Positions 13,166-54,031 are shown, numbered from the stretch's first letter. The stretch: DNA of 64,000 nucleotides from an uncultured Methanosarcinaceae archaeon (GCA_963833425.1 CAWHXP010000002.1:288001-352000); one strand, 5' to 3'. The notes: generated by a model not told the origin, from the sequence alone. Numbers and translations are program-made.

Positions 13166-13954
13166 ATGCTGTTTATCATCTATCCCTTCATTTCGGTTAT
13201 TCTGTTAGTCTTATTTATACTTTTTACAGCAATAGGCCTTACTATCAAGTTCAAAATCATAAGTTTGAAGGAAACTAAAGAACTAAGAAGCATATTTGCT
13301 GTAAAATGGTTGTTTTTTTCTCATACTTTTTTAATTGAAGAGCCTCTGACAAAAAATAAAACGTTTGAGGAACCTAAAAAGTCGGAAGTTGAAAAGGTAG
13401 TAGAAACTCTGCAGGATGAAAAAATCGGAATTAAAAAAAAAACTGAGAATGGAGTAAAAACAAGATCAATTGATGGAATAAGAGGAGAAGAAAAAGTTAA
13501 AAAAGAAAATGTGACAGAGTCTAAAAAGGGGATGACCACCAGAGAAATGTTTAAATGGAGCTTTGAAGCATTTAGTTCTCTAAGAAAACCTTTATTTTGT
13601 CTATTTTCTGATTTGTTGAATGGAATCAAAATTAAAAGCCTGGAATCTTGCATGACTTTTTGCCTTCCAGATCCTTCTGATACTGGTATTCTCTGTGGAT
13701 TCCTACATGCTATCGCAGGATTTGTCTACAGTCGTTGTAGGCATTGTAATTTTTCCATAAAACCTGAATTCATGGATCCAATGTTGAATTTACAGGGAAA
13801 TTTGGAAATACGTATAAAAATACATTCTTTGATTCTTCCATTCATTAAATTTATATTTAACTGGAATACTTTATCTTTCACTTACTCGGTTGTGAAGGAT
13901 ATACTTCAGCGGAAATGGAAGTCTACATGGAAGCCTAAATGGAAGCTTGCCTAA
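13166..13954 (+). CDS. DUF2953 family protein
   Basis: N-terminal TM, charged linker, LPDPSDTGILCG motif; usual neighbour of ytfJ. Confidence 0.75.
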   Translation: MLFIIYPFISVILLVLFILFTAIGLTIKFKIISLKETKELRSIFAVKWLFFSHTFLIEEPLTKNKTFEEPKKSEVEKVVETLQDEKIGIKKKTENGVKTRSIDGIRGEEKVKKENVTESKKGMTTREMFKWSFEAFSSLRKPLFCLFSDLLNGIKIKSLESCMTFCLPDPSDTGILCGFLHAIAGFVYSRCRHCNFSIKPEFMDPMLNLQGNLEIRIKIHSLILPFIKFIFNWNTLSFTYSVVKDILQRKWKSTWKPKWKLA

Positions 13955-14003
13955 AAGTCTAACTCCGAATCTATATGAACAGGTAATGAGGATACAAGTG
14001 AAT

Positions 14004-14969
14004 ATGATTAAAGTAGTGTCTCCCTCTAGACTGCATCTTACCTTAATAGACCTCAATGCAGAGCTCGGCAGAGTTGATGGGGGAGTAGGAATTACCCTGG
14101 AATACCCATCCATGGAACTTTGGGCAGATAAGGCTGATAATATCGAAATTTTAGGAGATTCTCTTCTATATGAAAAAATGAGAAAAGCAGCAGATTCTCT
14201 GTTACCTGCTGGGAAGGGGATTAAGCTCCATATTAACGACAGTATTCCTGATCATGTAGGTCTCGGTTCCGGGACTCAGGCTGCACTTTCAGCAGGAGCT
14301 GCTTTAAATAAAATTTACGGACTTGGTAAAAGTATTCGAGAACTTGCAGTTGCTGTGGGTAGAGGAGGGACTTCTGGGATAGGGGTTGCTGCTTTTGAAT
14401 ATGGTGGTATAATCCTGGATGGAGGCCATAAATTTAAGGATAAGCTTAATTTTTCTCCTTCTGCTGCCTCAAATGTACCTCCTGGCCCTGTACTCTTCAG
14501 GGAAAATTTTCCTGACTGGCCGATTGTCCTTGCAATCCCTAATACTAAAGGAGTCCATGGCGCCGAAGAAGTGGATATTTTCAAAAAATATTGTCCTATT
14601 CCCCTTGCTGAAGTCCAGGAGATTTCCCATGTAATCCTTATTCAGATGCTACCGGCAATAATGGAAGAAGACCTGGAAAGTTTTGGGAGGGCAATCAACC
14701 ACTTCCAAATTGCAGGTTTTAAGAAGCGTGAAGTCGAACTTCAGCAACGACCTGTTCTGGACATCATGGAGTATATGCGAGACAATGGAGCAAGTGGTTC
14801 AGGAATCAGTTCTTTTGGGCCAGTAGTTTACGGGGTAGTTGGAAGCATCGGCGAAGGCAAAAAACTTCAGAAAGAATCTCAGCGAATGCTTAATGAATCT
14901 CTTGGAGGGAAGGTATTGCTCACAAAGGCTAAGAACAGTGGTGCCGATATATTTGGGGGTCCTGATTGA
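14004..14969 (+). CDS. mptG: Beta-ribofuranosylaminobenzene 5'-phosphate (RFAP) synthase, GHMP family, methanopterin biosynthesis
   Basis: PSRLHLTLIDL, RVDGGVG, HVGLGSGTQ, GRGGTSGIG, DGGH and SSFGP motifs. Confidence 0.9.
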   Translation: MIKVVSPSRLHLTLIDLNAELGRVDGGVGITLEYPSMELWADKADNIEILGDSLLYEKMRKAADSLLPAGKGIKLHINDSIPDHVGLGSGTQAALSAGAALNKIYGLGKSIRELAVAVGRGGTSGIGVAAFEYGGIILDGGHKFKDKLNFSPSAASNVPPGPVLFRENFPDWPIVLAIPNTKGVHGAEEVDIFKKYCPIPLAEVQEISHVILIQMLPAIMEEDLESFGRAINHFQIAGFKKREVELQQRPVLDIMEYMRDNGASGSGISSFGPVVYGVVGSIGEGKKLQKESQRMLNESLGGKVLLTKAKNSGADIFGGPD

Positions 14970-15973
14970 AGATCAATACCTGGTTTGGAGTTCTTGAGAT
15001 AAGCAGAACAGGAGAAATTATGGAATCCGAGCTTTTTTCAAAGGATATCCAGGAGCTTGCACTTCACTCCCTTTGCCTCAGAAAAAACATAGTGAATCTT
15101 CTGCCGGAGAAATTTGATATGATAGCTGCGGCTCTCGAGTGCAAGTTTGTAGTTTCCCCTTCAGAGTATTATTCCCTTTTACATGAAGTGACCCTAAAAA
15201 CTGCAAAACTTCAAGTATCAGGAGCTCTTAACCCTGATCAGCGAATTATCCACGCTGTGGAAGCCCTGGATGACATTAATGAAAATATAAACTCCCTATC
15301 TGAAAGACTTTCCGAATGGTATGGGATTTATTTTCCGGAAAGCGGTCTTGGAGGAGAAGCTCTTGCCATTTTTGTTGCATATTATGGTTCACCTAATAAT
15401 TTAGGGTCTGAAAATCCTCTCTATTCTAAAACAATAAATTCAATGGGTGCAAAACTAGAGGCTGCAGACGAAATGCTGCTGAAGGGCTTTGCAGAAAGCG
15501 TTTATAGCCTGTATGAAAGGAAGAGACAGATAGAAGCTTATATAGAAGACAGCATGGGATCGATTTCACCAAATCTAAAACTCATTGCAGGCTCAATTCT
15601 TGGGGCAAGATTAATAAGTATTGCAGGGAGCCTCGAGAAACTTGCTTCTTTTCCTTCAAGTACTATTCAAGTTATAGGGGCTAGCAAGGCTCTCTTCAAG
15701 CACCTTCGAGCTCGAGCTCCGTCTCCTAAGCATGGAATCATCTATAGTCATCATCTACTGAATACTGCTCCCTGGTGGGTAAGGGGAAAAATCGCAAGAG
15801 CGCTTGCAGGGAAGTTATCCCTTGCTTCTAGACTCGACTATTATTCAGGCGAAAAAGACCCCTCCCTTGTAGAAAAACTTGAAATAAAGGTTCGACTGAT
15901 CAAGGCTTCAAATCCCAAACCTCCTCAACGAATGCAAGTAAACGAGACAAAAACCAAAAAAAGGAAGAGGTAA
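14966..15973 (+). CDS. nop5: Box C/D RNP protein Nop5 (Nop56/58)
   Basis: ERLSEWYGIYFPE, GARLIS.AGSL.KLA.FPSSTIQVIGA, PKHGIIY, RGKIARALA. Confidence 0.93.
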   Translation: MKINTWFGVLEISRTGEIMESELFSKDIQELALHSLCLRKNIVNLLPEKFDMIAAALECKFVVSPSEYYSLLHEVTLKTAKLQVSGALNPDQRIIHAVEALDDINENINSLSERLSEWYGIYFPESGLGGEALAIFVAYYGSPNNLGSENPLYSKTINSMGAKLEAADEMLLKGFAESVYSLYERKRQIEAYIEDSMGSISPNLKLIAGSILGARLISIAGSLEKLASFPSSTIQVIGASKALFKHLRARAPSPKHGIIYSHHLLNTAPWWVRGKIARALAGKLSLASRLDYYSGEKDPSLVEKLEIKVRLIKASNPKPPQRMQVNETKTKKRKR

Positions 15974-16657
15974 ATGCCTAAAGTCAATAAACTATACGAT
16001 GGAATTTATGAGATAGTGAAAGACAAAAAGCAGCTTGCTACACGGAACATTGACTGTGGTAAAGTAGTCTACGGAGAAAAATTAATTTCCTTAGAAGGTG
16101 TTGAATACCGAATATGGGACCCACACAGGAGCAAGCTGGGAGCCATGATCCTAAAGAAGTTCAACATACCTATTAAAGAAAATTTTAAAATTCTCTATCT
16201 TGGAGCAGCATCAGGCACAACTGTAAGTCACGTATCTGACATCGTTTCAGGTGGTGCAGTCTATGCCGTTGAGTTTGCCCCGCGGAGCATGAGAGATCTC
16301 ATAGGACTTGCATCTAGACGGAAAAATATCTACCCAATCCTAGCTGATGCGAGGAAAACAGATAGTTATGCCCATCTAGTTGAACCTGTGGATCTCATCT
16401 TTCAGGACGTTGCACAACCCAACCAGGTAGAAATAGCTACAAGAAATGCTGCTCGTTTTTTGAAAAGAGCCGGATATGTCCTGCTTTCCATCAAGTCACG
16501 AAGTATCGATACTGTGATGAACCCTAAAAAAATATTTGCAAATGAGCTTCGAAAACTAGAGCAAACACTTGAACCAAAATTCGAAATTCTTTGCGTAAAG
16601 GACCTGATGCCCTATCATGAAGACCACCTCGGAGTTATCGCAAAATTAAAAAATTAA
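15974..16657 (+). CDS. flpA: Fibrillarin-like 2'-O-methyltransferase
   Basis: VYGE, YR.WDP.RSKL, LYLGAASGTTVSH, DVAQPNQ. Confidence 0.96.
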   Translation: MPKVNKLYDGIYEIVKDKKQLATRNIDCGKVVYGEKLISLEGVEYRIWDPHRSKLGAMILKKFNIPIKENFKILYLGAASGTTVSHVSDIVSGGAVYAVEFAPRSMRDLIGLASRRKNIYPILADARKTDSYAHLVEPVDLIFQDVAQPNQVEIATRNAARFLKRAGYVLLSIKSRSIDTVMNPKKIFANELRKLEQTLEPKFEILCVKDLMPYHEDHLGVIAKLKN

Positions 16658-16821
16658 ATCGGTATCAAAGTATATTATTTCTAATTTTTAAATAAATTAA
16701 GCGAAGTTATTTCTTATTATCATAATCAATTATTTCATTATCATAAATAATTTCTTTGATATTTATCTAATTTATATAAATGTTTCGTAACTTAAGATAT
16801 TCGGAAATATTGTTTGTTACG

Positions 16822-16909
16822 GAGAATTTCAAAAAACCTCTAATTTGATCATATGTACATAAATAGACAGCAATTGACTCGTGAAATTCAGAGATTCGTC
16901 TAAATCCTC
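16822..16909. mobile_element. 88 bp IS5-related MITE
   Basis: GAGAATTTCAAAAAACCTCTAATTT ... AAATTCAGAGATTCGTCTAAATCCTC. Confidence 0.6.
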
Positions 16910-16998
16910 TTTAACTCGATTTTTGCCGTCTCTTTTAATTCAGGAAAAATTATTGAATAAATTATACTAAAGTAGGATTCTGGACTTTTGTCCCACAC

Positions 16999-18138
16999 TT
17001 ATTCTACAACTTTCAAGTATTTTTTCCGGAATTCGGGGTTCCTCATAAGACAGCACTTTGCATTGTACACAGGATCCTTACGGATTTTCTTCCAAATATC
17101 TTTTATTTTGTCTCTATATACATTCCCATATGGGATAGGAATACAAGCACAGGGTAGAATGTTCCCTTCTGGAGTGATGTGTAACCATTTCCTGCCTGCC
17201 ATACAACCAGTTGCCTTCATGATCTGCGGGATAGCAAAAACTCTTGGACCTTCTTTTTCCCTGACAATCGATACAAAATTGTCAAATTTTCTCATATTTT
17301 TTGGGTTCACGATTTCGGAAGTATTATTCATCCACCTGCCAGTAGGAACTATTTCGTACAAAGAAAGTTCGTGGACTCCAAGCTCTGATGCAAGTGTATA
17401 TATTTGTTCAAGCTCGTTTACGTTGTCATTGGAAAGAACCACATACATATTCACAAGCAAATCTGCCTTAATTCCATTTTTGACTGCCTCAACCGCACTG
17501 TTGAAAACCCCTTTTCTACCCCTGACATAATCATGCTGATCTTCAGACGCGCTGTCAAAACTGACAGTAAGGGAATAAAGGCCTGCTTCTTTCAAGCTTC
17601 TTGCTCTCTCTTCAGTCAGCCCGATTCCAGATGTAAACATTCCGTTGACGGCTTTTTCAGGATCTACATAATTAATCAGGTCTTCTAATCCAGGATACAT
17701 AAGAGGTTCGCCTCCGTCAAAGATTACGACGGTCGTGCCCATCTCGAGAACTTGATCAATTGTGGATTTCACTGCTTCAGGTGTGAGTTTCGCCCGGTTT
17801 TTTGTGTCAGGAAGAGCACAATGGATACAGTTGTTGGGACATTCCTCAGTTATTGAGATGGTTACCTGATCGGGAACCATTTTACCCAGAATGGACAAAA
17901 GCTGGCTTTTAACCAGGCGATCAAAACCTAGACTTGGTATGGAGGGCAGCCAGGTCGAACAAATAAGCCTATCGGAATCTATTTTTGCAGGTTTTTCTCC
18001 TTCAAAAATTGAGAGGTTTTTCCCAAGATTTTTTCGCATAATTATGGACGCTGGCCCGCTGGTTATTAGCCTCATGCGTCCGTCATCTATTTTGACAGAT
18101 ATTCTTAGGAAGGGGCTTTTATAAAAATCATACTCCAT
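16999..18138 (-). CDS. Radical SAM protein with C-terminal SPASM/twitch-like Cys motif
   Basis: CPNNCIHC (CxxxCxxC), GGEP, and GCMAG...TPEGNILPC...CC. Confidence 0.9.
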   Translation of the reverse strand: MEYDFYKSPFLRISVKIDDGRMRLITSGPASIIMRKNLGKNLSIFEGEKPAKIDSDRLICSTWLPSIPSLGFDRLVKSQLLSILGKMVPDQVTISITEECPNNCIHCALPDTKNRAKLTPEAVKSTIDQVLEMGTTVVIFDGGEPLMYPGLEDLINYVDPEKAVNGMFTSGIGLTEERARSLKEAGLYSLTVSFDSASEDQHDYVRGRKGVFNSAVEAVKNGIKADLLVNMYVVLSNDNVNELEQIYTLASELGVHELSLYEIVPTGRWMNNTSEIVNPKNMRKFDNFVSIVREKEGPRVFAIPQIMKATGCMAGRKWLHITPEGNILPCACIPIPYGNVYRDKIKDIWKKIRKDPVYNAKCCLMRNPEFRKKYLKVVE

Positions 18139-18221
18139 ATTTTATCCTGCATCGGATGTTTGATGCTGATATTTGTGCAAGCCAGATTCTTTATTTAAAT
18201 TAGTCTTTTAAAATCCAAAGC

Positions 18222-19379
18222 TCATTTGTTCCTGAAAAGTGCTCTGCAATTCAATATTGAAAAGGGTTTTTTCTTCAACATGAATGCAAAGATCTGCATC
18301 GTCTGCTCAACTGAAGTTCCATGAATGAATGAGAGATTTTCATTCTCAAAAACAGTTACTATATCATCAATTTCTCTGTCTGTCATTTTTCGAAGAGTTT
18401 CAAGCCCTATGCGACCAACGTAATGTTCTATCTTAAATTCCTTTTCCCAAGTCTTCCGATACTCTGATAGATAATTTTTTGAGGTGTCCCCTTTTTTTAC
18501 AGCATCTGCAGCCACATCTCCGCATATTTGGCCTGCTCTCATTGCATAGCCTATCCCGGACTGACCGGCTGCCCCACCGACGACCATGATTCCATCGGTA
18601 ATAAACTCATTCGGAAGTGTTACTATAGGGTCTCCGCCGGAAAATTTTCTTACGACTTCAAAATCTAGTAATCCTTTTATTTTCTTGAATTTTTCAATCC
18701 AGGAGTTCAGGTAAGGCATTGCATCCTTTCCGCATCTACGTACATATGCCCCGATTGAAGCATTGTCTCCCCCCCTTGGGGAATAAGTAGTCTTCCATCC
18801 AGGGGCATGATTTCCTACGTAATACTCAAACATTTTTGATTTACCAATGCCTGAAGCCCGAATTTCAAGTTCAATTCCCCAAGCAATATCTTCCGGATGT
18901 TTCATCGTTTTCAGCCCAACAGAGGATGCCATTTTCGAATTAATACCGTCTGAGATAATTACGATTTTTGACTTAAAAATCCCGGTCGAGGTTTTGACAG
19001 AAAATGTTTTCCCGTCTCTGAGAATATTCTGTGCTTCTACCCCTTTTTGAACATCTACGCCGATATTTATTATTTTTTCCGTATAAAATCTGTCGAACTC
19101 TGTTTTATCAATAGCATATCCAGGGGCCTCAACCTCTACTATCCTTCCCGCAGGAGAAATAATTTGCATGCCCTTGAGGTAATGCATTACATAAGACGGA
19201 TCTACTGTCTCTCCACATTTATCAAACATATTCTTAAAAAAAGAATTTGCAGGATGTGGAGGGTTTCCAATATTTTCTTTTTTTTCCAGCAAAAGGACTG
19301 TAGAGCCTTTTTCACTCGCGTTCCTTGCAGCCATCAATCCTGCAGGAGATACTCCAATAACAATAATATCCGCATCCAT
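18222..19379 (-). CDS. Geranylgeranyl reductase-family flavoprotein, divergent
   Basis: Rossmann IIVIGVSPAG, LLEKK, KTEFD, SDGINS, VVGGAAG, GIGYAM.AG. Confidence 0.85.
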   Translation of the reverse strand: MDADIIVIGVSPAGLMAARNASEKGSTVLLLEKKENIGNPPHPANSFFKNMFDKCGETVDPSYVMHYLKGMQIISPAGRIVEVEAPGYAIDKTEFDRFYTEKIINIGVDVQKGVEAQNILRDGKTFSVKTSTGIFKSKIVIISDGINSKMASSVGLKTMKHPEDIAWGIELEIRASGIGKSKMFEYYVGNHAPGWKTTYSPRGGDNASIGAYVRRCGKDAMPYLNSWIEKFKKIKGLLDFEVVRKFSGGDPIVTLPNEFITDGIMVVGGAAGQSGIGYAMRAGQICGDVAADAVKKGDTSKNYLSEYRKTWEKEFKIEHYVGRIGLETLRKMTDREIDDIVTVFENENLSFIHGTSVEQTMQIFAFMLKKKPFSILNCRALFRNK

Positions 19380-19395
19380 GTTCCCCTGCCTTTTT

Positions 19396-20337
19396 TCACC
19401 AGAGAATGGAGGTATAAGATCCTACATAAATGCACAGCACCACATCCAGGATCATTGATCCGAACATGATTGCTCTGTAATTTGAGCCTTTAAGGAAGAT
19501 TGCAGCTCCCCTCTCCGGGGTAGGGTGCCTGATAAAGTCAAAACACTGGACAAGCATCCAGAGCCCTGAGGCAGAGGCACCTACAAAATATACGGGCCCA
19601 AGATGGGCAGACCAGCCGATAAGCACTGATGCAATAACACCGACAACCCACCAGATAGTAACAAATCTGGCGGTAAAAGGAATTCCAAATGTCACTGGCA
19701 TTGTAGGGGCACCCTTAAGCCTGTCCCCTTCCAAGTCTCTGGAAACACCTCCAAGAGTAAAAGCCCAGTCTGTAACACACATCATAAGCCCAAAACAAAT
19801 AGCTGGCAAGGGAAGAGTTACCCCGTCGCCGCCTTTCAGTAGCCCTATAGGGTCAAAGGCAACCCAAACACCTATAGGCACAAGCCCATAGGAGATACCC
19901 ACGGGCAAAAAGCTGAGAAAGGTGTGCCTCTTTGCAAAGATCGAATAAATGGTAATAGTTCCGACCGCAATAAAAAGGATAATGAGAGATTCAGGGTTTA
20001 GATAAGTGGCTGATGCGCCTGCTATTACTAACAACAAGAAGGCATAAATAAAAGCCGAATTTTTTGAGATTCTGGAAGAGGGTAGAGGGCGGCCTGGCAG
20101 ATTGATCGTATCTATATCAATATCGCAGCAATCATTAAAGACGTATGAACTGGTAATCGCCGCAAAGCCTCCTATAACGGCAATCAAGAAGGGGATAAGT
20201 TTAGGAAGTCCTCCTGTTGCTATATAAGAGGCCAGAATTGCACTCGAAGATGGAAGGGTAAGATCCATGTAGTAGAGTTCGGGCCTTAAAAGTTTGAGGT
20301 AAGGACTGAGTTCTCCAATTCTTGCTGTAAGAGAAAT
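19396..20337 (-). CDS. UbiA-family membrane prenyltransferase; apparent non-canonical start
   Basis: NDCCDIDID..N.P.RP and RDLEGD Asp-rich motifs, multiple TM; frame extends 23 codons upstream of ATG 20268 through YLKLLRP to an ATT behind a GAGGTGA RBS. Confidence 0.88.
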   Translation of the reverse strand: MSLTARIGELSPYLKLLRPELYYMDLTLPSSSAILASYIATGGLPKLIPFLIAVIGGFAAITSSYVFNDCCDIDIDTINLPGRPLPSSRISKNSAFIYAFLLLVIAGASATYLNPESLIILFIAVGTITIYSIFAKRHTFLSFLPVGISYGLVPIGVWVAFDPIGLLKGGDGVTLPLPAICFGLMMCVTDWAFTLGGVSRDLEGDRLKGAPTMPVTFGIPFTARFVTIWWVVGVIASVLIGWSAHLGPVYFVGASASGLWMLVQCFDFIRHPTPERGAAIFLKGSNYRAIMFGSMILDVVLCIYVGSYTSILW

Positions 20338-20608
20338 TATTTCACCTCTATTTTTCGAATAGATACAGAAGTCTTTTTATCTGAATTATTTATACTTCAG
20401 GTTTTTTTTAATTTATAATATTTTTTGCAATAAGTCCTATGAAGGTTCGCATCTCAAAAAGTTTTTCTTTTTATTTTTTTTCAGAGACAGTGTTTTATTT
20501 ATGAGATTTAGTGAAGGAGTTATAAGTAAATCATAAAGGATATATTAGGAAGTCTGAAGAACTGTTAGATGCTCAATGTCGTTACAAAGCTCCTATAGAG
20601 CTCATTTT

Positions 20609-22081
20609 TTATGTTTCTTCCCCAGCCTCCCTGTAGATCAGTTTTGCATTTTTGCTTATTTCTTCAAATAGCGGGTGTTTGAACTCCTTTTCGCAGACAA
20701 AGGTAAACTCTGCTTTCGGGTTTAAGACCATTAGTTTAAGAGTATTTAGAAGAGCTGTGCTGAGGGCTTCATAATCCGGAAATTTAGGAACCTCGGCATT
20801 GAAAGGATATACTTCATCCATTTCAACAGGAAATGCCCCGAACGGTGCTTTGAAATTAAGGATTTGATCGTAACTGTTCTCTCCCTTCACAGGGTCTGTG
20901 CGAATAAGTACCGAGCCTTCAAAGCTAAACCTTCCCAGTCGTTTCCCAAAACGTAGGATTTCTGGCCGAGAGGAAGATTCTGGTCCACAGTAAAAATATG
21001 TTCCTTTTGTGGCTGGATCCAACTGTTCAAGCCAGTGTGAGTGTGTATAAAGTTTTTTCAGTCCTTCAAGAAGCCTTGGATGAGAACGGCATCTTTTCTC
21101 TACAAGTTCGAGCAATTTTCCGTCCTTTATGCACTGTTTAATAAGCCGGATTTCAGCAAAAGTTGCGTAGAGGTTGTGCTTTCCCAAAAGTTCTTCCCTG
21201 TTATCTGCTTTTTTAAGTTCTTGTGCGGTATATTTTGAACAAACCTGACAGGAACAGGGTAAATAATTTAATTTATCCAAATGATAAGTCCCGTTTACAG
21301 TAATATAGCGCCCGTCCTTAGCATAAAGGGCATAAGCTGCCGAATCAAAAAGATCGCAGCCAAGTGCCACTGCAATAGCGAACATCATAGGGTGCCCTGC
21401 TCCGAAAAGATGTATCGGTGAGACTGGAGAAAGCCTTTTTTTGGATGCCGCAACTAAGTCAACGAGATCTGCATAACGGTATGCTTCCAAGAGCGGGACA
21501 ATTGCTCCCAGAGAATATACATCAAATTTGAGATTTTTTAGTTGGGTAGCAGCCTTTTCTCTAAGATCAAGGTAAGTTGAGCCCTGTACTGGCCCCGCAA
21601 GTAGTTGTTCACCCTTAATAAACTTACGGGCAGCTTCCAGACGTTCATATGTGATCGCAAGCTCCTCTTCAGCTCTTTTATAGTGAACATCTGGGGGCGT
21701 TGGAATGTCGAGAGGGACAACAATATCGCTTCCGATCTTTTGCTGAAACCCAAGAATCTCTTCATTTGTTACTTCGACAGAACCATATACTGAAAGCTGA
21801 AAAGAACCCGAGTCAGTCATAACGGGTCCGTCAAAATCTATGAGCTTGTGCAGCCCTTTCTCAAGAGCAATTTTTCGCAGCTCTTCCTTACGGTAGATAA
21901 TATAAGAATTGGTGATCAGGATTTCTGCTCCGAAGGTTCCCATTTCTCTTGGAGAGATAAGCTGGATATTCGGATTGATTACAGGCATTACTGTAGGTGT
22001 CTCAACAATTCCATGGGGAGTCCTTAACTTTCCTATCCTTCCGCCTGCGTCCTTGTCAAAAATTTTGAATATTACTGACAT
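20609..22081 (-). CDS. tgtA: Archaeosine tRNA-guanine(15) transglycosylase
   Basis: GRIGKL.TPHG.VETPTVMPV, ITNSY, MTDSGSFQL, LDIPT, HLFGAGHP, DLFDSAAY, CSCQVC zinc site. Confidence 0.95.
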   Translation of the reverse strand: MSVIFKIFDKDAGGRIGKLRTPHGIVETPTVMPVINPNIQLISPREMGTFGAEILITNSYIIYRKEELRKIALEKGLHKLIDFDGPVMTDSGSFQLSVYGSVEVTNEEILGFQQKIGSDIVVPLDIPTPPDVHYKRAEEELAITYERLEAARKFIKGEQLLAGPVQGSTYLDLREKAATQLKNLKFDVYSLGAIVPLLEAYRYADLVDLVAASKKRLSPVSPIHLFGAGHPMMFAIAVALGCDLFDSAAYALYAKDGRYITVNGTYHLDKLNYLPCSCQVCSKYTAQELKKADNREELLGKHNLYATFAEIRLIKQCIKDGKLLELVEKRCRSHPRLLEGLKKLYTHSHWLEQLDPATKGTYFYCGPESSSRPEILRFGKRLGRFSFEGSVLIRTDPVKGENSYDQILNFKAPFGAFPVEMDEVYPFNAEVPKFPDYEALSTALLNTLKLMVLNPKAEFTFVCEKEFKHPLFEEISKNAKLIYREAGEET

Positions 22082-23419
22082 ACCGGCATTATAGACGCTC
22101 ACTAGATATATTTATTTTTGGGATTGGAAATAAACCAGGATAAAGTGGAAGGAGCCTAAAGATACACTTTCTCAGTTTTAAAAAACAGGGAGAAAATGGT
22201 TTTTAAGTCAGAATTCCGGTATCTAACTACTTTTTCTAGATTTTTTTACCTGAATTTTTTTCCTACCTCAGTCTTTTATTGCTCGAGACATTGAAGTAAT
22301 TTTCCAGAAACCATAGGGAGAAGAAATCACTGCTCTTAGATATTCTCATTACAATGATCATATAGGTTACCTATCGAGTATCTCCTATACTATAATTACT
22401 ATGTCATCTAAAACAAGGATATATCTTTATTAGCTGCTATAATTGCAACATCAATATTTACTTCGAAGATTATTCCGAAGAGATAACTAAATTTGAGAAT
22501 TACTTCCAAGGCTTGTTGCAGGTGTAACCATGTCAAGCAAAATAATAGAAATGGATAGAAGTTCCAATGTAAGACTCAAGATTTTGAACTTAATGCGATT
22601 TGAATGGCGCTAGAAACATCGAGCATAGAACACGAGCGATCGGTTTATCTTAGAATCTCATGGTTGTCTGTCAATCATCCATACGGATAGTATGATTTGG
22701 TTAATCAGATATATCTCGGCCTGTTATTTCACCGGCAATATTGAATTTCGTCAAACATATAGGTTGAGTGGAAATTACTTTCCGGGATCTTCAGGTTTCT
22801 TATTCTATCATCCTTCTACTTCCCACTACCTTTTCTTTTTGGCAATAATGGTAGCTTATCCAGATAAATTCTATTCCACTACCCTTTAAATCCTAAGTCA
22901 TTCTTATAGCAATTTTTCCGCTTGGGCTAATTGCTATAATATGGAATATTTTAAACTGTGGTGATTTTCTTGATGTTGCCTCAACAATTGCTTTCGTACT
23001 TGACTCTCATACACTGTTATCGATGGAAAATATATTTTTTCCAAGTATTATTCTCTTCTTCATTCGTATTTTGTATCCTGATGCGGCTCTTTTTTACGGT
23101 TCCTTTTCTAATCTATGCTCATCCTTATAACAATTTCAAAAACGAATTCTTCTCCGGATGGTTCTCATTGAGGAGATATATTATATTGGATTATAAATAT
23201 ATTTAATACGGATATATTCCTCCTTCAGAAGAAAAAATATATATTGAAACGAGTCTATTTTAATAAAAAAGAGATTTATGAAATTCGGAAATCCGGATTC
23301 ATTGCATAATTTTTTTCTTGTTGACTTCAATGCAGAAAGCAAAGCAGACTCAGGCTACTGAAAAAATTATTTATCTATGATTAGGTAAAATATAATCATA
23401 GGGGTCGCATTTTATAGAG

Positions 23420-24569: not shown

Positions 24570-24751
24570 CAATCTAATTGAATGATGTAATCGCTAAAAA
24601 CGGTTATATGAACTGAATTTTTTCTAGTTATTCACTGCCTAAGCTTCAGGAAATAACTATCAATTTTTCAAGGACAAAAATATAGCTTCCTGTTCTAATT
24701 TCTCTTTGGGAAAAACTTTTAAAAAATTGAACAAGAAATGGATCATTAATA

Positions 24752-24840
24752 GATAATTTTGATAAAACTCTAATTTTCAAAAGTCGTTGATATACATTTT
24801 ATAAAAATATGACAAAATTTACAAGTTTATCGAAATACTC
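24752..24840. mobile_element. ~88 bp IS5-related MITE
   Basis: GATAATTTTGATAAA ... TTTATCGAAATACTC. Confidence 0.65.
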
Positions 24841-25959
24841 AAGATATGCTAATATTTCTCCAAAGTATTTACGTACGTTCTCTCTGCAACTTTTTTTTCT
24901 TACCATAGTTTTTGGTTTTCTACTACCAGGTGCTTCCGTATTCTCTAATATTTCTCCTCTACTTTTACCTTACTATTTACTAATACCCAACTATCATCCT
25001 AACCTAAACTTTCTACCTGGCATTCCGAAGTGAAAAGTATGAACATGTCAAATTTAAATTTTTCCCATATATGCTTTTAGATCCACGTTTGATACCCATA
25101 AAAATTTTCCCGGAATATGCTCAATTTTTTTAGCAGTAAATATTCTCCTGGATAAGTTTGAAATTACGCATTTGAAATAAAAACCAAATACTTCAAACAT
25201 TACGATCTAATTAAAAAAGAATTTTAAATGTATATTGCAGATTTTACAGAAAATTATGCATGTTATATCTAAAATTAATCTACTTATATTTGAAAAAAAA
25301 ATCACAATATTAAGTTCATTAAGATTTCCACAAATAATGCAAACATAATTAATATAAAATTATATTTTGATTTTAAAGCATTTTACGAGGAAATAATTTT
25401 TATTCAGAAATTATTTTTTGTATAATTAATTTAAAATAACGGTGGAGACAATTTTTGATTTTAGATTAAAGTAAACGAATAAAGAGTTGAGTGAGGAATA
25501 TCAGTAGGATGTGTGATTACGCAGAGTGGATGTATAGATCTATTGGGTAATCGTAGAAAATTTTGATAAACTTCCGATTTTCAACAAATTGCTTCCATTC
25601 ACTTTTTCGCTACGGCCTCTTAGCTTAAATCATGTCCATCAGCAGATTAGAGATCCCCAATATTTCAAACTGTACCGTTTATGGGACACAATTGACTTAT
25701 TGTTGATCATAGTTTACAATTGATTACATTTGATCAAAAGCCAACAAAGTCAGAATTTTTAGGTAAAAGAAAGAAATTATTGTATAGTTGATCCTCGAGA
25801 AATAAACCTTTTATGGACTAATCTTAAAAGAATTAACCTTGAAAGAGCTAATCATTTTATGGCTGATCTTGAATAATCTGACTTTGACGTAGCTACCTTG
25901 ATGTAGCTAACCTTTAGGAACTAACGCAGACAACAATGTTTAGAAAGATTAGGACTATA

Positions 25960-26046
25960 GGGGATTCAATAAACCCCTTATTTTCACGATTTATTTATGT
26001 ATCAATTATAAGCATATGAAAAAGTTTAGGAGTTTATCAAAATCAC
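25960..26046. mobile_element. ~88 bp IS5-related MITE
   Basis: GGGGATTCAATAAACCCCTTA ... TAGGAGTTTATCAAAATCAC. Confidence 0.6.
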
Positions 26047-26071
26047 TTTATTTTTAAAACAGTATTTAAAA

Positions 26072-27066
26072 GGTTCTGTATAAATGCTCTAAATTGAACT
26101 TTTACACTACATTATTATAATTATTCCGTTAGAGTATTCTCCTTATTTTTCTGCTAAAAACGAAGGAACATTCTATATTGAAGTTTAATAAGTACATTAA
26201 ATTTGTTTATATTAACCTTGAAACTGTTCAGTCTTCGAGACTGAAGCTTTATTCCTGCAAATATTCAAAACACGTTTATGCCCAGCATTAGCTTCTTTTA
26301 CTGGTTTTATTTAAAGAGTATATTCGTACAGACTATCTCTAGATTTTGTAGAACTCATTGACCTTATGAGCGATATAAATGAAAAATTTGCTCTTGATAA
26401 AATTCCACATTTCACTACTCTTCAAAAGTATGTAACTAGGATTCCTTCTTATCTGTTTAACCATCTTCTGTCAAGGATTATAAAGCTGTTTTACTCATAT
26501 GGAGAAAATATCTATGATACAGCGATTGATGCAAGGGATTTACGAGTCCCTATGCAAGTTATTATTCCAGAAGAACGGGAATCTTCGAAGAAGCTTCCTG
26601 AGAACTTCAATATCATTAGACATAAGTAAAAAGGTAATATTGGGATGGAAAATTAGTCAAAAAACAGACAATGAAATCAAACATGCAAATGCTCTGATAA
26701 GACAATCAAATAAGATGAGAAAGTCTGATTGTTATGTAATGGATAGAGACGATTCAGAAAAAAATCCATTCTATAATTAGAAAAGAAATCAAAGCAGATT
26801 CAATTATACCTGTAAGAGAGAGAAAAAGGAAGAAAATAGGAGTAAATATAGAAACCAGCTGCCTCTGTCTTTGACAAAATTAAATCTAATCAAATAAATA
26901 TTGTGGAGACAATGTTTTCTGTAGTTTAATGAAAATTAGGAGAAACACTTAAGGCAAGGAAATTCCGTTATCAAGTAAAAGAGATTAAAATTAAATTAAT
27001 AGCATACAACATAAACAAAAAAATTATAAATATAATTTGCATCAAATTATGGATTTCTAAAGAGCC
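26072..27066 (+). mobile_element. IS5-family insertion sequence, 995 bp, transposase pseudogenised
   Basis: TIRs GGTTCTGTATAAAT / ATTTCTAAAGAGCC; 8 bp target duplication ATTTAAAA (26064-26071, 27067-27074); fragments IPHFTTLQK, AIDA, VMDR, IVETMFSVV. Confidence 0.88.
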
Positions 27067-27099
27067 ATTTAAAACAATATTTTTAGGATAGCATGCATT

Positions 27100-27180
27100 G
27101 ACGCATAGTTTCTGTTGAAAAAGAGTTCAAAACGGTGAAAAATGATATTTCGTCGCTTCCGATAGAAGCGTTTCATTAAA
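27100..27180 (+). pseudogene. Possible IS1634-like transposase fragment
   Basis: VEKEFKTVKNDISSLP resembles the post-catalytic E..F..LK motif; short. Confidence 0.3.
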
Positions 27181-27861
27181 AGATAAAAATTCTAATTCAT
27201 TAAGTTAATGACTAAAATAATGCAGAGGTAGGTTTAATATTAACCAATTCTATCGGTACGCTATAAAATTGCTCTTTTTACTGTCTTGGATGGTACTTAT
27301 TTTGCCCATCAACTCGGAAACTTTTGAATTTAATTATCCAAGAGTTTTAGATCACTCCTGATATCATTCCTCTTTCACCGATATATAAATACCAAAATCG
27401 CTCCTCTACATTATAATCTCGCCTATTACGCAGATATAAAAAGCTCTAAATTACTTGGCAGGAAGTGGAAATGGGAAATTGAAATACGTTCCTCTTTTTG
27501 AGATTGCGGATTCAGAAGATGTTGATATTAGATAAGATGGGACATAAATCTGCAGAAAGATCAAGGTGTTTCTCAGGAAGTTGTAGGCAAAACAACCGGA
27601 CATGTTGTCAATGGTCGATTTGTATACATAGGTACTAACTTGAAGTTGGAAATTATCAGTTGATAGATGGGTACCGTAAAGTGATTTACATAGCTATTGC
27701 AGTTATCATCTTCAGCTCTGTAAGCTGGCTACTTAACAGGAAAAAAGATATACAGATATGGAATTCGTTTGCCTATTTGTCAAATATTATTCGTTGAAGA
27801 AACCGACAATTAGGACCTGTAGATTTTTGTCACTCATTTAGCTGTCATTCATCTCAATCCT

Positions 27862-28146
27862 TTAGTTATCATCGAAATCGGCTTTAATTTTGAGTGCATC
27901 TTCACGAGAAAGAGATGTGCATGTTATCGTTGCTTTGAACTTGTTTAATAGCTCTAGTACCTTATCTTCGGCCCATTTCGTGATTAAGATAAATAAAGCA
28001 AAGATTCCTATCAAAATACTCCAAAATGCGCCGCCAATTATGCCTATACCCGCAAGATGTACTGCCCGCTTCACCTGTGTTTTGCCATCGTGCTTGCAAA
28101 TTATCCCAAAAAAGAGTAATATGTTCGTTTTATCAGATTTTATCAA
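27862..28146 (-). pseudogene. DUF1269-like membrane protein remnant with internal deletion
   Basis: DGKTQVK.A, GIIGGAFWSILIG joined directly to ALFIL..KW.EDKVLE.L.KF..TI..TSLSREDA. Confidence 0.6.
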
Positions 28147-28799
28147 TGACTCATCTCCAATACCTAAATCTATTTATTTGCAAGTGTCCAAAAGGCTTTC
28201 TTTTTACTTTCCCTATTTTCAGAGTAAAGACTAAAATCAAGCACAATATTTATTTTAGTTAAATTATTATTTCAACAGTTAAATTGCGTAGATATTCGAA
28301 TTGATAAGATTTCAGCCTAAAACTACCAAAATCTATTCATTTTAAGCGACAATGTACAGTTACCTCCATGGTTATTTTAAATTAATTATACAAAAAATAG
28401 TTTCTGAATAAAAGTTATTTCCCCGTAAAATGTTTTGATTCTAAACAATAATTTAATATTAATTATGTTATTACTTTATAGATAGTCACATATTTAATAT
28501 TGAGCATTTTCGGAAAAAGCACTTAAAATTGTGCTTATCAAATTCTCAAATTAAAAAATCTGATAAAAGTTATTACCAAAATTTTATCTTTTAAATAAAA
28601 AATTTTTAAATTCATTGCCATTCCCTTAGGTCAGTGAATAAATCTGCGAAATGATCTTTTAGAAACTCCTTAGTGGCTAAAAGAAGCAGAGAATTTAAAC
28701 CGAGAGATTGCGAATCCATTTTGAATCAAATACTTCCACTCTTAAATTGATTATAAAAGAAAAGGAAGCACTATATCTCATGATACTTTAACGAGGTAA

Positions 28800-28925
28800 T
28801 GGCGGATTACCAGAAACTGGAATAGGGATTATAATTTGTAAAAAAATTGCGTAATATATGGGGGTATATGGATGGAATCTAAACTGGGTAAAGGTTCAAT
28901 TTTTTTATTTCGCTTTATCAATCAA
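28800..28925 (+). pseudogene. Histidine kinase HATPase C-terminal remnant
   Basis: TGIGIIICKKI then, after a frameshift, GIWMESKLGKGSIF. Confidence 0.65.
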
Positions 28926-29279
28926 CCTTATCGAATTTCAAAAACCAATTTTTTACATATAAGAAAAATTTATAAAGTGTAGCTTTTTCTGTAAAATTTC
29001 CTCTAGCCACTTTAATCTTCTTTTTAATCCTTACTCCATATTATTCACACTTGTTTTCTGTGCACAAGATAAGTCCGAATTACATCCTATATTGAAAAAC
29101 AAAATTATATATCGGGCACAAAAATTTGACTTATAATTTACAGCAAATTCACAACACTGCCATTGAATTTTAAAATACTTCTGTATTGAGAAAATATATG
29201 AAACTTTTATGTAAATATGTGGGAAGTGGAAACAAAAAAATTACCAATCCACTTTTCATTTTTCATCTGTCACATATGA

Positions 29280-29530
29280 ATTGGGCCGTTTAGTTTAGAG
29301 CACGATCCTGGTAAATAAACTGTGTTCAATAATTATATATATTGATTTTTAATTCATTATATCAACTTTACTTCTGAACAAGGTACTCCTACATGGAATG
29401 TATCAAAAGATGCAATGATGTCGTTTTTCCTTGCTGATGTGTCTTAGTAGATGATGAATTTCGCATTTATTATGGAAGTGCAGATATGTCAGTATCAATG
29501 CCCAGTGCAAAATTGCGAATACCTGAGTAG
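29280..29530 (+). pseudogene. GH130-like glycosidase/phosphorylase C-terminal remnant
   Basis: NDVVFPC*CVLVDDEFRIYYGSAD. Confidence 0.6.
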
Positions 29531-29629
29531 ATACAGGGGTGCTCTGAGAAACAATGTCCTGAAGAATACTGTAGATAGTTTGAAGAAAAAAAAATTTTCT
29601 AGATACAAAAAAAGTGATTTTAAATAAAA

Positions 29630-29717
29630 GAGAATTTCGATAAATCTCTAATTTTCAAAGTAACTTATAAACTATTTATAATCACATGACAAAATTAAGG
29701 AATTTATCTAAATTCTC
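29630..29717. mobile_element. 88 bp IS5-related MITE
   Basis: GAGAATTTCGATAAAT ... ATTTATCTAAATTCTC. Confidence 0.75.
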
Positions 29718-30979
29718 TATAGGCCTAGTTTCTCTAGAGTTGTTGTCTACGTTAGCTTTAAAAGGTTACTCTAATGTTCTAAAAACTGCTGCTCTGGTGA
29801 TTTAAAAACTAGCCGAAACTCCTCTTTTAGTTGTATGAAAAATTCTTTGTCCAATTTTTACCTTATAAAGCACTCTCACTTTAGACAGCTGGTCAATTTT
29901 GATAAATTAAGCGCTACTTCAAGGTTAGCCTTAAAAGAGTTTATAGAATTATATATATTATTTATATATATTATCAATCTTACTTACAGATAATCATACC
30001 TTCAAAGAAACAAATCTGGATCATCAATTAGAATATAAAATTCACTCAGTGAATCTGCCGATGAAAAGTTTATTGGAAGACGAACAGCATGAAAATTGGA
30101 TTCAATTAGCTGAAGGTTGGCAAGTAGACAAAATGGGATAATAGCCATTTGGCAAACCAATAACGATACCGACTATTTAATGAACAGTCTTTCTGTAATA
30201 ATATTAATAGTTCAAGTAGCAGAAATATTGCGTGTGAAAAGCCCAAACTACGAACAAGGCTATTAAGTCAGCTACATAGCTTGCTACCACTTCTCTATCA
30301 ACAATATTTTTTATGATATCAAAGTTGGTTTAGGTCCGAATTTTAGCTATAATAGTGGACATGAATATAGGAAATTAATGCAATTTCAGAGAGTAAAAAT
30401 AAAAATATAGAGTCAAAAATTAATGACATAGATATAATTCGAGGGAAAATTATTGAGAAGTTTATTCGGGTCAGAAAAATGCACAAGTCACAAATTATTT
30501 AAATTTTTTATTCGAACGGCTTTTTTTAGCTCCTAGCACTTCAATTGCTCTCGAATTGATAAAGGTTAACATCTATAGCCTGTAATTAGGATACAAACGT
30601 TGAATGTTTCCCAGTTCCTTTTTGGATATTCCATATAGTCCTTTGATTTACTAGGTACGTGATCACAAAAGTATTAAATATATATCTAATTTCATTCGAC
30701 TGCATAGAGTAAATTTAATGAAGAATATGTGCCTATTTTAGGAACTACAGTTTAATAAAATTAACAGAAATAAATTGGATCTTGAGATCATAGATCAAGA
30801 GTTATTGAAGTACCGAAGTTACGGCATTTATTGCAAGACTCATCAGGAAGGAATGAATTTTCAGCAAATTTCAGTAGAACTATCAAAATGTACCAGAAGG
30901 CTTTAAAGTTCTTCTAAAAATGATATTAATTATAAAATCTCAGGATTCTCTAAAATTAAAAATTGAATCTGAAAACAAA

Positions 30980-31004
30980 AAATTGGTCAAAAAAGGACCA
31001 ATTT
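30980..31004 (-). terminator. Hairpin downstream of the thermosome gene
   Basis: AAATTGGTC-N7-GACCAATTT perfect 9 bp stem, followed by T-rich sequence on the minus strand. Confidence 0.4.
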
Positions 31005-53977: not shown

Positions 53978-54031
53978 TAAATGAATTCATTTATTCCCAA
54001 GATCCCTTTTTTCTTTGATCTCAGTTTTAGG

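Follow-up and report, generated by a model that had tools for sequence, protein, structure and literature searches.

A conserved UbiA, GGR-fold flavoenzyme and radical SAM gene cluster of Methanosarcinales: a candidate isoprenoid module, possibly for methanophenazine

Three tightly linked genes occupy the minus strand at 16999-20337 of the 64,000-nt stretch of DNA from an uncultured Methanosarcinaceae archaeon that was analyzed here (the window): they code for a UbiA-family prenyltransferase, a divergent flavoenzyme with the GGR fold (hereafter GGRl) and a radical SAM enzyme. An ORF listing reproduced this arrangement and its gaps of 16 and 83 bp as given in the original prediction, and the three family assignments made there hold on Pfam, NCBIfam, PDB sequence and Foldseek matches. 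The features are the following:

20342..20348, minus strand: GAGGTGA, resembling a Shine-Dalgarno sequence and lying 4 nt before the ATT
20335..20337, minus strand: ATT codon, aligned with the start codon of relatives
19396..20337, minus strand: UbiA-family membrane prenyltransferase (PF01040, Asp-rich motifs), 313 codons from the ATT
19380..19395, minus strand: UbiA-GGRl spacer of 16 bp, containing GGCAGGGGA (sequence reading)
18222..19379, minus strand: GGRl, divergent GGR-fold FAD protein, 385 aa (TIGR02032, Foldseek)
18139..18221, minus strand: GGRl-radical SAM spacer of 83 bp, with a TTTAAATA element at 18192-18199 (sequence reading)
16999..18138, minus strand: radical SAM enzyme, 379 aa (PF04055 and PF13186); its N-terminal domain of 90 residues is conserved and its C-terminal domain is of the SPASM/twitch type

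The UbiA and GGRl genes are presumably co-transcribed, and the TATA-like element TTTAAATA in the longer spacer may, judging from its letters, be an internal archaeal promoter. The upstream end of the first gene had been predicted at 20337, which is correct: counted from its first ATG the ORF spans 19396..20268 (290 aa) and this ATG, at 20268, is residue 24, while the frame is open upstream of it and the homologues (313-317 aa) cover the query in full, including the extended N-terminus. The start position is TTG in 49 of 51 Methanosarcina-clade loci, GTG in one and ATG in one. The G of the relatives' TTG is missing from the window (aataaTT[G]TCT), so that an ATT is left in frame at the start position; GAGGTGA also precedes the TTG start in those relatives displayed beside the window.

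The prenyltransferase matches PF01040 over residues 10-262 with 145.9 bits (Pfam cut-off 34.2). The UbiA superfamily is characterized by two Asp-rich motifs, NDxxDxxxD and DxxxD, which can be read directly in the sequence as NDCCDIDID and DLEGD, and N68, D69, D72, D76, D201 and D205 are invariant even in a distant alignment. Its nearest named relatives are the ether-forming DGGGP synthases (PRK12884 and PRK12882; PDB 6m31, E 1.6e-12). Nevertheless, it stays far below the cut-off of every NCBIfam equivalog tried, i.e. the heme o, 4-hydroxybenzoate, MenA, MqnP, chlorophyll and DGGGP synthases. On the DGGGP synthase models it reaches 101.7 bits of 269 (PRK12884), 86.2 of 296 (PRK12882), 71.7 of 353 (PRK12883) and 35.1 of 278 (PRK12872.1-1), with five other members of the family at 100-126 bits; the remaining scores are 78.1 of 210.3 for heme o synthase, 58.2 of 313 for ChlG, 54-55 of 275-364 for the UbiA equivalogs and 41-52 of 375-430 for MqnP. 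We therefore rejected the candidate identity that the original prediction had singled out as contrary evidence, namely that this is the DGGGP synthase orthologue, and the only one, of the genome (72-102 bits against cut-offs of 269-353). In a tree the family forms a clade of its own (30 of the 45 rows, SH-aLRT 98), and the genuine DGGGP synthase representatives lie in an outgroup of about 30% identity. The representatives passing the DGGGP synthase cut-offs, P0268, P0273 and P0274, show about 30% identity to the window protein. The UbiA protein is a narrow, DGGGP synthase-related paralogue, restricted to Methanosarcinales as far as its members are named, and distinct from DGGGP synthase.

Among the database entries, one annotation source names the orthologue P0028 a DGGGP synthase, and four representative clusters (P0248, P0256, P0262 and P0264) fall just outside the clade. 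Methanosarcina barkeri is listed with at least five UbiA paralogues in Table 3 of PMC6315138.

A scan of representative clusters covering 1.84 billion proteins gave 2105 matches to the UbiA protein at E<=1e-3 and just 14 representative clusters at E<=1e-30, and in a profile search the E-values jump from 1.9e-72 to 1.7e-23, save for one 214-aa protein at 7.8e-46. Neither search returned a close orthologue of comparable similarity across the rest of Archaea. The named members all belong to Methanosarcinales, namely Methanosarcina, Methanolobus, Methanohalophilus, Methanosalsum, Methanomethylovorans, Methanohalobium and Methanolapillus, as well as ANME-2c, ANME-3 and Methanotrichaceae; the best 80 of 243 loci comprise 74 from this order and 6 unassigned ones. 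Passages of the literature place methanophenazine in all Methanosarcinaceae analyzed (PMC3017947), consider it likely to be used by ANME-2a (PMC5244752) and presume that Methanothrix reduces it (PMC12918732); Methanoperedens is reported, in similar passages, to be without it. Named members of the UbiA family thus occur in lineages that use methanophenazine (genera of Methanosarcinaceae, Methanolapillus, ANME-2, ANME-3, Methanotrichaceae), and a restriction to Methanosarcinales also fits any other trait of that order.

On Pfam, GGRl matches only FAD-binding Rossmann families, and its nucleotide-binding motif is GxSxxG. TIGR02032 recognizes it with 104.6 bits (E 7.6e-30), below the cut-off of 158.8, and 3oz2 is its best PDB sequence match (E 5.9e-24). 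The AF2 model (pLDDT 85.1) retrieves the same entry with Foldseek (E 4.7e-30, TM 0.85/0.82), followed by SaGGR entries at TM 0.74-0.79; non-GGR flavoproteins reach at most 0.70, leaving TaGGR the best match by a clear margin. The hallmarks of the catalytic site are nonetheless replaced: the RCGEG of TaGGR, with the active-site Cys, aligns to HPANS of the window protein with Pro43 in its place; KTTYSP, in the aligned segment KTTYSPRGGDNASIGAY, stands in place of the YxWxFPx7-8GxG motif (PMC6309074, PMC4244643); and ITGGGIA, with the GGG motif, aligns to QSGIGYA after a 6-residue deletion. GGR_cat (PF22578) was not detected in any of three family members at E<=10, a search in which most matches weaker than about 0.1 are removed by the filters of HMMER, and Lycopene_cycl matches all three along their full length (23.5, 33.8 and 38.3 bits; Pfam cut-off 23.4). 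The relevant passages of PMC6309074 state that each GGR with demonstrated reduction of prenyl substrates has the Cys, YxWxFP and GGG elements, all three. The residues invariant in 15 of 15 orthologues of GGRl include H42, P43, N45, F47, F48 and K49, along with W195, K196, T198, Y199 and P201; His42, beside the former Cys position, could be a proton donor. Several sources name orthologues of GGRl DGGGPL reductase. The description of this protein as a divergent reductase homologue is thus upheld by the GGR fold (TM 0.85), the TIGR02032 score below cut-off and the replaced motifs; since it is devoid of every motif thought to be catalytic in proven GGRs, the predicted reduction of one double bond is something we infer.

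The third protein scores 83 bits with PF04055 (cut-off 29.5) and 30.8 bits with the SPASM family PF13186 (cut-off 21.5). All 13 of the orthologues compared keep the three Cys of its CxxxCxxC motif (C100, C104, C107) and also the auxiliary C312, C330, C332 and C363. A full SPASM motif has seven auxiliary Cys and two clusters; the four invariant ones thus fit a single auxiliary cluster of the twitch type. It falls far below the AhbD, NirJ, PqqE and MoaA equivalog cut-offs of NCBIfam (125.8 bits of 500 for NirJ2, 121.7 of 500 for AhbD, 115.5 of 381 for PqqE and 83 of 325 for archaeal MoaA). The best PDB sequence match is SkfB (E 1.5e-14), and the top Foldseek matches of the AF2 model (pLDDT 83) are SkfB, SuiB, BlsE and CteB at TM of about 0.6. 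The N-terminal domain, modelled as three strands and a helix, has no Pfam match at E<=10. A search for a conserved small ORF or precursor peptide nearby yielded none: the candidates match just the 4-5 closest loci, with 40-67% identity, below that of the neighbouring genes. As the best structural matches are peptide maturases, the suggestion in the original prediction that this enzyme builds the ring is purely conjectural.

Gene order was compared across related loci in GTDB species representatives (the best 80 of 243), with loci having room as denominators. In this sample GGRl directly follows UbiA in 72/75 loci (median HSP-based spacer 20 nt) and the radical SAM gene comes next in 67/71, on the same strand and after a spacer whose median is 75 nt. 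Protein identities at the related loci drop to about 50-65%, and the downstream flank varies between genera. Three ANME-2 loci keep the UbiA-GGRl pair alone, with both flanks different and no radical SAM gene beside it in any of the three. Given that the unrelated tgtA adjoins in 62/70 of the same best 80 loci, synteny alone is weak evidence and conserved adjacency in the Methanosarcinales clade is partly inherited. Among the 29 loci that are more distant, adjacency holds in 21/25 for the radical SAM gene and in 14/21 for tgtA. The gene arrangement exceeds chance.

We tentatively propose that these genes make up an isoprenoid module, conserved and specific to the Methanosarcinales lineage, with methanophenazine as its most likely product, formed by UbiA-catalyzed ether formation and saturation by the flavoenzyme; on the sequences at hand we give this reading as a whole a probability of about 0.4. 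In such a scheme UbiA, a paralogue from the ether-forming DGGGP synthase branch, would transfer an all-trans polyprenyl diphosphate to a hydroxyl acceptor in the membrane, specifically forming the aryl ether of 2-hydroxyphenazine (or a precursor) with geranylfarnesyl diphosphate, and the presumably co-transcribed GGR-fold flavoenzyme would act next on the transferred chain, saturating the isoprene unit that adjoins the oxygen. The first isoprene unit of methanophenazine is saturated. The radical SAM enzyme, linked to the pair in Methanosarcinaceae, might provide or modify the head group in an oxygen-independent way. The families, fold, linkage and distribution all agree with the methanophenazine reading, a reasonable but unproven candidate, in which we infer which acceptor and chain length are used, that a reduction takes place and where, and whatever the radical SAM enzyme may contribute. 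A bolder version seems decidedly unlikely: that the trio is the core of methanophenazine biosynthesis, with a DGGGP synthase-derived UbiA making the aryl ether, a Cys-less GGR relative with a His-Pro-x-Asn site carrying out just one stereospecific saturation, in the unit adjoining the oxygen, and an oxygen-free radical SAM route to the head group that is unrelated to bacterial phz. The pathway is called "not known" in a passage from 2015 (PMC4683180) and "not deciphered" in one from 2021 (PMC8546582), and two sources put forward a UbiA gene for methanophenazine synthesis on the basis of its expression (10.1101/2022.07.20.500911; PMC6315138); no paper assigning these three genes was found in the literature searched.

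The UbiA-GGRl pair might instead make or modify a membrane lipid or polyprenol, e.g. as a second DGGGP synthase-like ether synthase for a specialized archaeol or in producing a saturated polyprenyl carrier, the flavoenzyme saturating or altering the chain. This would agree with the nearest named family of UbiA (DGGGP synthase), the nearest fold of the flavoenzyme (GGR), the annotation of P0028 and of several GGRl orthologues as lipid enzymes, and the dolichol-acting GGR paralogues described in part of a review (PMC10821996); yet both proteins lie far under every lipid-pathway equivalog cut-off, and the rest of Archaea share the core lipid pathway without having the UbiA family at comparable similarity. 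Moreover, the same review already credits a phytoene-desaturase homologue with making hydroxyarchaeol in M. acetivorans, and the lipid GGR and its ferredoxin are placed at another locus in a passage of PMC4244643; we consider a lipid role unlikely. We also find it improbable that the flavoenzyme is no double-bond reductase at all and catalyzes a non-reductive isomerization, cyclization or hydration of the chain or head group: whereas the replacement of Cys, YxWxFP and GGG, the undetected GGR_cat and the Lycopene_cycl matches at or above 23.4 bits in 3/3 members speak for such an enzyme, TIGR02032 scores far higher (104.6 bits, E 7.6e-30), TaGGR is the best structure (TM 0.85 against at most 0.70 for non-GGR flavoproteins) and the invariant His42 could donate the proton.

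The radical SAM enzyme could lie outside the prenyl pathway altogether, as a peptide or protein maturase or an unrelated enzyme kept adjacent by inherited gene order. Structurally it comes closest to RiPP maturases that carry a recognition domain at the N-terminus (SkfB, SuiB and CteB, TM 0.56-0.63), SkfB is the best PDB sequence match and the model shows three strands and a helix at the N-terminus, although this domain is without a Pfam match at E<=10 and a conserved small ORF was not found nearby. The genomic evidence is likewise divided: absence of the gene beside the pair in 3/3 ANME-2 loci, the about equal linkage of tgtA (62/70 vs 67/71 among the best 80 of 243) and the TATA-like element inside the 83-bp spacer favour independence, whereas the adjacency in the 29 distant loci (21/25 vs 14/21 for tgtA), the constant strand and the median spacer of 75 nt do not, and on balance we hold independence to be somewhat unlikely. 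Another undescribed prenylated cofactor, e.g. a prenylated tetrapyrrole with the radical SAM enzyme tailoring the macrocycle, appears very improbable. Chlorophyll synthase and ChlP likewise follow a prenylate-then-reduce logic, the radical SAM protein has its best NCBIfam matches in NirJ2 (125.8 bits), AhbD (121.7 bits), NirJ1 and AhbC, and further matches of UbiA are heme o synthase (78 bits) and chlorophyll synthase (58 bits), but these scores are a fraction of cut-offs of 210-650 bits and the DGGGP synthase models outscore them for UbiA. We know of no prenylated tetrapyrrole in Methanosarcinales.

The Methanosarcinales, cytochrome-using methanogens and methane oxidizers, have methanophenazine as their membrane electron carrier. 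With the C25 diphosphate synthase alone assigned in the pathway, genomes cannot be scored for it, an inability openly stated in passages of ANME and Methanoperedens papers. As the module is small, conserved, restricted to one order and present in the genetically tractable Methanosarcina, the question is directly testable. GGRl is of interest whatever its product, combining a strongly conserved GGR fold with replacement of all three supposedly necessary motifs.

Each protein of the trio has a counterpart among known enzymes. The window UbiA has in common with DGGGP synthase (6M31), its best-scoring named family, the superfamily and both Asp-rich motifs, and the ether that DGGGP synthase forms between a prenyl chain and a hydroxyl is a bond type that methanophenazine also has; whereas DGGGP synthase is universal in Archaea, the named members of the window family come from one order, and the identity of the window protein to genuine DGGGP synthases is about 30%. 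GGRl resembles the archaeal GGR/DGGGPL reductases (TaGGR 3OZ2, SaGGR 3ATQ) in its fold, its FAD-binding N-terminus and the adjoining prenyltransferase gene, and differs in having Pro43, KTTYSP and QSG with a 6-residue deletion for their Cys, YxWxFP and GGG. The radical SAM protein is like the SPASM/twitch enzymes (SkfB, SuiB, CteB, PqqE, BlsE, AhbD/NirJ) in its CxxxCxxC core and C-terminal auxiliary-cluster domain, and like SkfB, SuiB and CteB in its extra N-terminal domain, but has four invariant auxiliary Cys and an N-terminal domain without a Pfam match.

An archaeal precedent for a carrier-specific GGR paralogue is presented, as far as its title tells, by the menaquinone-specific prenyl reductase of Archaeoglobus fulgidus (Hemmi et al. 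2005), which acts on the side chain of a membrane electron carrier as proposed here, although on a quinone with a C-linked chain and not an aryl ether. The geranylfarnesyl diphosphate synthase MM_0789 of M. mazei (Ogawa et al. 2010), the sole methanophenazine enzyme assigned in the portions of the literature searched, would supply the donor for the proposed UbiA reaction; it is of another enzyme class and is not encoded in the window. Finally, a membrane-bound 1,6-dihydroxyphenazine prenyltransferase from a marine actinomycete (PMC4044012), bacterial and of secondary metabolism, offers by its title a precedent for the prenylation of a hydroxyphenazine, to which the predicted reaction of the window UbiA may be likened.

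On the minus strand at 16999-20337, the window carries a trio of genes coding for a UbiA prenyltransferase, a divergent flavoprotein of the geranylgeranyl reductase (GGR) fold, here termed GGRl, and a radical SAM protein. The trio and its neighbours are laid out as follows:

19396..20268 from the first ATG, 19396..20337 extended, minus strand: UbiA prenyltransferase (Pfam PF01040, 145.9 bits)
18222..19379, minus strand: GGRl, the middle gene (Pfam, FAD-binding Rossmann families only)
16999..18138, minus strand: radical SAM protein (Pfam Radical_SAM, 83 bits, and SPASM, 30.8 bits)
20609..22102, same strand as UbiA and upstream of it: tgtA, archaeosine tRNA-guanine transglycosylase, housekeeping neighbour (Pfam/NCBIfam)
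15974..16657: Fibrillarin, housekeeping neighbour
14966..15973: Nop5, housekeeping neighbour
13947..14969: Beta-RFAP synthase, housekeeping neighbour

The spacers within the trio, as read from the sequence, are 16 bp (UbiA/GGRl) and 83 bp (GGRl/radical SAM). The three family assignments of the original prediction are borne out by Pfam, NCBIfam and structure matches, and its coordinates are correct, since the UbiA frame is open 5' of the first ATG in the window sequence and the 313-residue version from 20337 is covered end to end by homologues of 313-317 aa. At the start position itself (20335-20348 region, minus strand) the window has ATT, whereas TTG stands there in 49 of 51 Methanosarcina-clade relatives, the other two having GTG and ATG, respectively. 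The missing G of the TTG amounts to a one-base difference within a T run, and the GAGGTGA element upstream of the start is retained. Either ATT serves as a weak near-cognate start, or translation begins instead at the ATG at 20268, at the cost of 23 conserved residues, or the sequence contains an error.

The remainder of the window is made up of housekeeping genes, with no isoprenoid or phenazine gene elsewhere in the 64 kb and no Rfam family or tRNA recovered by the respective scans. This includes a long AT-rich stretch at 24600-31000 (GC 0.29-0.32), which has no Rfam or tRNA match and holds only two short ORFs of at least 90 aa, both lacking a Pfam family. Elsewhere, in the region 53531-55646, a PIN_5 ribonuclease gene lies between two transposase fragments (DUF772, 125 aa; DDE_Tnp_1, 111 aa), which look like what is left of an insertion sequence. 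In the RNase PH subunit of the exosome (58063-59460, minus strand), the domains occupy residues 36-228 and are followed by an extra, very Glu-rich C-terminal extension of about 235 residues. The thermosome ORF (31074-32900, minus strand; 608 aa as listed) has its Cpn60_TCP1 domain from residue 96, so translation probably begins further downstream than the first start codon of the frame.

The linkage of the genes was studied by searching GTDB species representatives with an alignment of UbiA proteins and taking the best 80 of 243 confirmed relatives, of which 74 are recorded as Methanosarcinales and six are unassigned. Adjacency was counted by tblastn at loci with sufficient room, and separately for the subset drawn from the 29 loci whose UbiA is less than 70% identical. 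In this sample, GGRl is found downstream of UbiA in 72/75 loci (24/26 in the subset; median spacer 20 nt), the radical SAM gene downstream in 67/71 (21/25; 75 nt) and tgtA upstream in 62/70 (14/21; 255 nt). At two of the GGRl misses, L036 and L062, the position holds a partial match, and at the third, L068, it holds Bro-N genes instead; the radical SAM misses comprise a partial match at L062 and absence of the gene at the ANME-2-type loci L061, L063 and L074. At two loci (L068:4529-5651, L067:9021-9671) the position after UbiA is taken not by GGRl but by genes with a Bro-N domain or one for a PLD-like nuclease, which suggests mobile-element insertion or rearrangement there.

The downstream flank of the trio is variable: among the same best 80 loci Fibrillarin and Nop5 are present in only four, and Methanolobus-type loci show DUF7121, a HAD hydrolase and Mtd in their place. 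In Methanolobus sp. ZRKC3 the DUF7121 gene (L057:11326-12234) comes directly after the radical SAM gene, in the opposite orientation; the window also encodes a DUF7121 protein, at 41321-42283, about 21 kb from the trio. The gene tgtA has no evident functional link with the trio and is an example of inherited synteny in Methanosarcinales. Conserved adjacency within this order is therefore partly inherited and alone no proof of shared function, as the unrelated tgtA is almost equally well linked. The robust part of the cluster is the UbiA-GGRl pair, which is kept in ANME-2 despite both flanks being different, with an S-layer-domain gene and ThiI upstream. At the ANME-2-type loci L061 and L074 a gene for a protein of about 199 aa lies just 5' of the pair (L061:7303-7902, L074:7309-7902), with the S-layer domain PF07752 shown for L061.

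Both Asp-rich motifs of UbiA are intact (N68, D69, D72, D76; D201, D205), and its best NCBIfam and PDB matches (6m31, E 1.6e-12) are DGGGP synthases (DGGGPS), the archaeal ether-lipid UbiA enzymes, or their close kin. The scores against the NCBIfam models are far under the cut-offs: 101.7 bits for PRK12884 (cut-off 269), 86.2 for PRK12882 (296) and 71.7 for PRK12883 (353). When HMMER was run exhaustively over 1.84 billion representatives, 2105 proteins matched at E<=1e-3. The number fell to 75 at E<=1e-10 and to just 14 at E<=1e-30, the majority of these 14 being fragments. Among full-length representatives the identity to the window UbiA drops fast, from 63% (P0241) to 45% (P0242), 37% (P0248), 33% (P0256), 32% (P0262) and about 30% for generic UbiA proteins. 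Relatives at 82-94% identity bear the name Methanosarcina, which places the source organism in that genus. When 31 proteins from the scan were compared with NCBIfam models, a DGGGPS-type cut-off was passed by P0268 (271 bits), P0273 (321.5) and P0274 (488), all in the outgroup of about 30% identity, and five further members of the window family scored 100-126 bits. Because the UbiA tree (45 rows) was inferred quickly and has several long branches, we draw only on its 30-row clade (SH-aLRT 98), which contains the window protein and all relatives that have a name: Methanosarcina, Methanolobus, Methanohalophilus, Methanosalsum, Methanomethylovorans, ANME-2c, Methanolapillus, 'Methanosarcinales archaeon' and Methanotrichaceae. 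A profile search seeded with distant members retrieved 56 proteins at E<=1e-20, with an E-value gap from 1.9e-72 to 1.7e-23, save one 214-aa protein at 7.8e-46. The sub-cut-off scores, the narrow scan, the 30-row clade and the E-value gap show UbiA to be a paralogue within the ether-forming branch, narrow in distribution and distinct from the lipid enzyme. An identity as the DGGGPS orthologue, which the original prediction had named as one counter-case, is ruled out by the NCBIfam cut-offs and the position of genuine DGGGPS representatives in the outgroup. At least five UbiA genes are reported for M. barkeri (PMC6315138, Table 3).

GGRl scores 104.6 bits against the GGR superfamily model TIGR02032, under its cut-off of 158.8, and among PDB sequences it comes closest to the Thermoplasma GGR 3oz2 (E 5.9e-24). 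Its AlphaFold model, for which 15 orthologues were aligned (mean pLDDT 85.1, pTM 0.86), likewise has 3oz2 as its best structural match (TM 0.85/0.82), followed by Sulfolobus GGR entries (0.74-0.79), FixC (0.70) and, below that, halogenases and hydroxylases. Three motifs, namely the active-site Cys, YxWxFP and GGG, are present in every GGR shown to reduce prenyl substrates, according to PMC6309074, in which the M. acetivorans GGR homologues Q8TQQ6, Q8TLY0 and Q8TSV3 were tested. In GGRl all three are replaced: RCGEG with the active-site Cys by HPANS (Cys to Pro43), YxWxFP by KTTYSP, and GGG by QSG after a six-residue deletion. The replacements are no sign of decay, with H42, P43, N45, F47, F48, K49, P193-K196, T198, Y199, P201 and G248-I252 invariant in 15/15 orthologues at identities down to 51%. 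Since all three motifs are replaced by invariant residues, GGRl is a functional enzyme of the GGR fold, conserved but with its active site rebuilt. In 3/3 family members Pfam GGR_cat is unreported at E<=10, and Lycopene_cycl spans the full length at 23.5-38.3 bits (cut-off 23.4). The best 120 GGRl matches are all from Methanosarcina or Methanosarcinaceae at identities of at least 69%, and a protein atlas search returned only generic archaeal FAD-oxidoreductase and radical SAM clusters. Ogawa et al. are said to have described, in 2014 in FEBS J, an M. acetivorans GGR of unusual regiospecificity.

The full SPASM domain has seven auxiliary Cys and two clusters. In the radical SAM protein the CxxxCxxC motif (C100, C104, C107) and C312, C330, C332 and C363 are invariant in 13/13 orthologues, and the four auxiliary Cys would fit one extra cluster better than two. 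It scores far under the cut-offs of all NCBIfam equivalogs, including NirJ2 (125.8 bits, cut-off 500), AhbD (121.7, 500) and PqqE (115.5, 381). Its structure model (pLDDT 83.0; the other four, 67.6-74.4) matches SkfB, SuiB, BlsE, CteB and MoaA at TM 0.55-0.63, several of these matches being enzymes that mature peptides and have a recognition domain at the N-terminus. In the radical SAM protein of the window, much of the 90-residue N-terminal domain does not vary across the 13 orthologues, and no Pfam family matches this domain at E<=10. Small ORFs at 16767-16998 were rejected as a precursor peptide beside the gene, as they match only the 4-5 closest loci, weakly.

UbiA, GGR-fold and radical SAM families are known kinds; no description of the specific subfamilies, the cysteine-less GGR active site or the conserved order-specific trio was found in the literature searched. 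Nor does that literature link methanophenazine with any particular prenyltransferase, reductase or radical SAM enzyme, and judged by title, 40 of 113 papers from 2022 onward report no such genes. The first isoprene unit of methanophenazine is saturated. In PMC3017947 this compound is described as a phenazine that carries a C25 polyprenyl chain through an ether bond, and as present in all Methanosarcinaceae analysed. Other reports state that Methanothrix is thought to reduce it (PMC12918732), that ANME-2a likely uses it (PMC5244752) and that its biosynthesis is unknown (PMC4683180; PMC8546582). Two expression studies guessed at some UbiA gene for methanophenazine, without naming this locus (PMC6315138; 10.1101/2022.07.20.500911), and the supplements of PMC11024163 contain no 'UbiA', 'prenyltransferase' or 'geranylgeranyl'. 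Of the known prenylated small molecules, methanophenazine is the only one whose distribution matches that of the window UbiA family.

A specialised lipid or polyprenol function would suit the kinship of UbiA with DGGGPS; the separation of the family from the lipid enzyme points the other way. The trio might also make an undescribed prenylated cofactor. The flavoenzyme GGRl could be non-reductive, as its lost motifs would allow, but with GGRs as its closest matches the likeliest predicted chemistry is double-bond reduction. The radical SAM gene could be a mere neighbour of the pair, given its absence from ANME-2-type loci, despite its frequent adjacency elsewhere; the methanophenazine reading is at its weakest in the part this gene would play in making the head group.

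The trio is a real and well-delimited finding and its functional label a testable hypothesis, with its assignment as a methanophenazine tail module ranked first, tentatively, at a probability of roughly 0.4. This ranking follows from the matching distribution and from precedent: a UbiA enzyme with a GGR relative is an established prenylate-then-reduce pattern, as in the DGGGPS-GGR pair and in chlorophyll synthase paired with ChlP, and one GGR paralogue of Archaeoglobus reportedly serves an electron carrier specifically.
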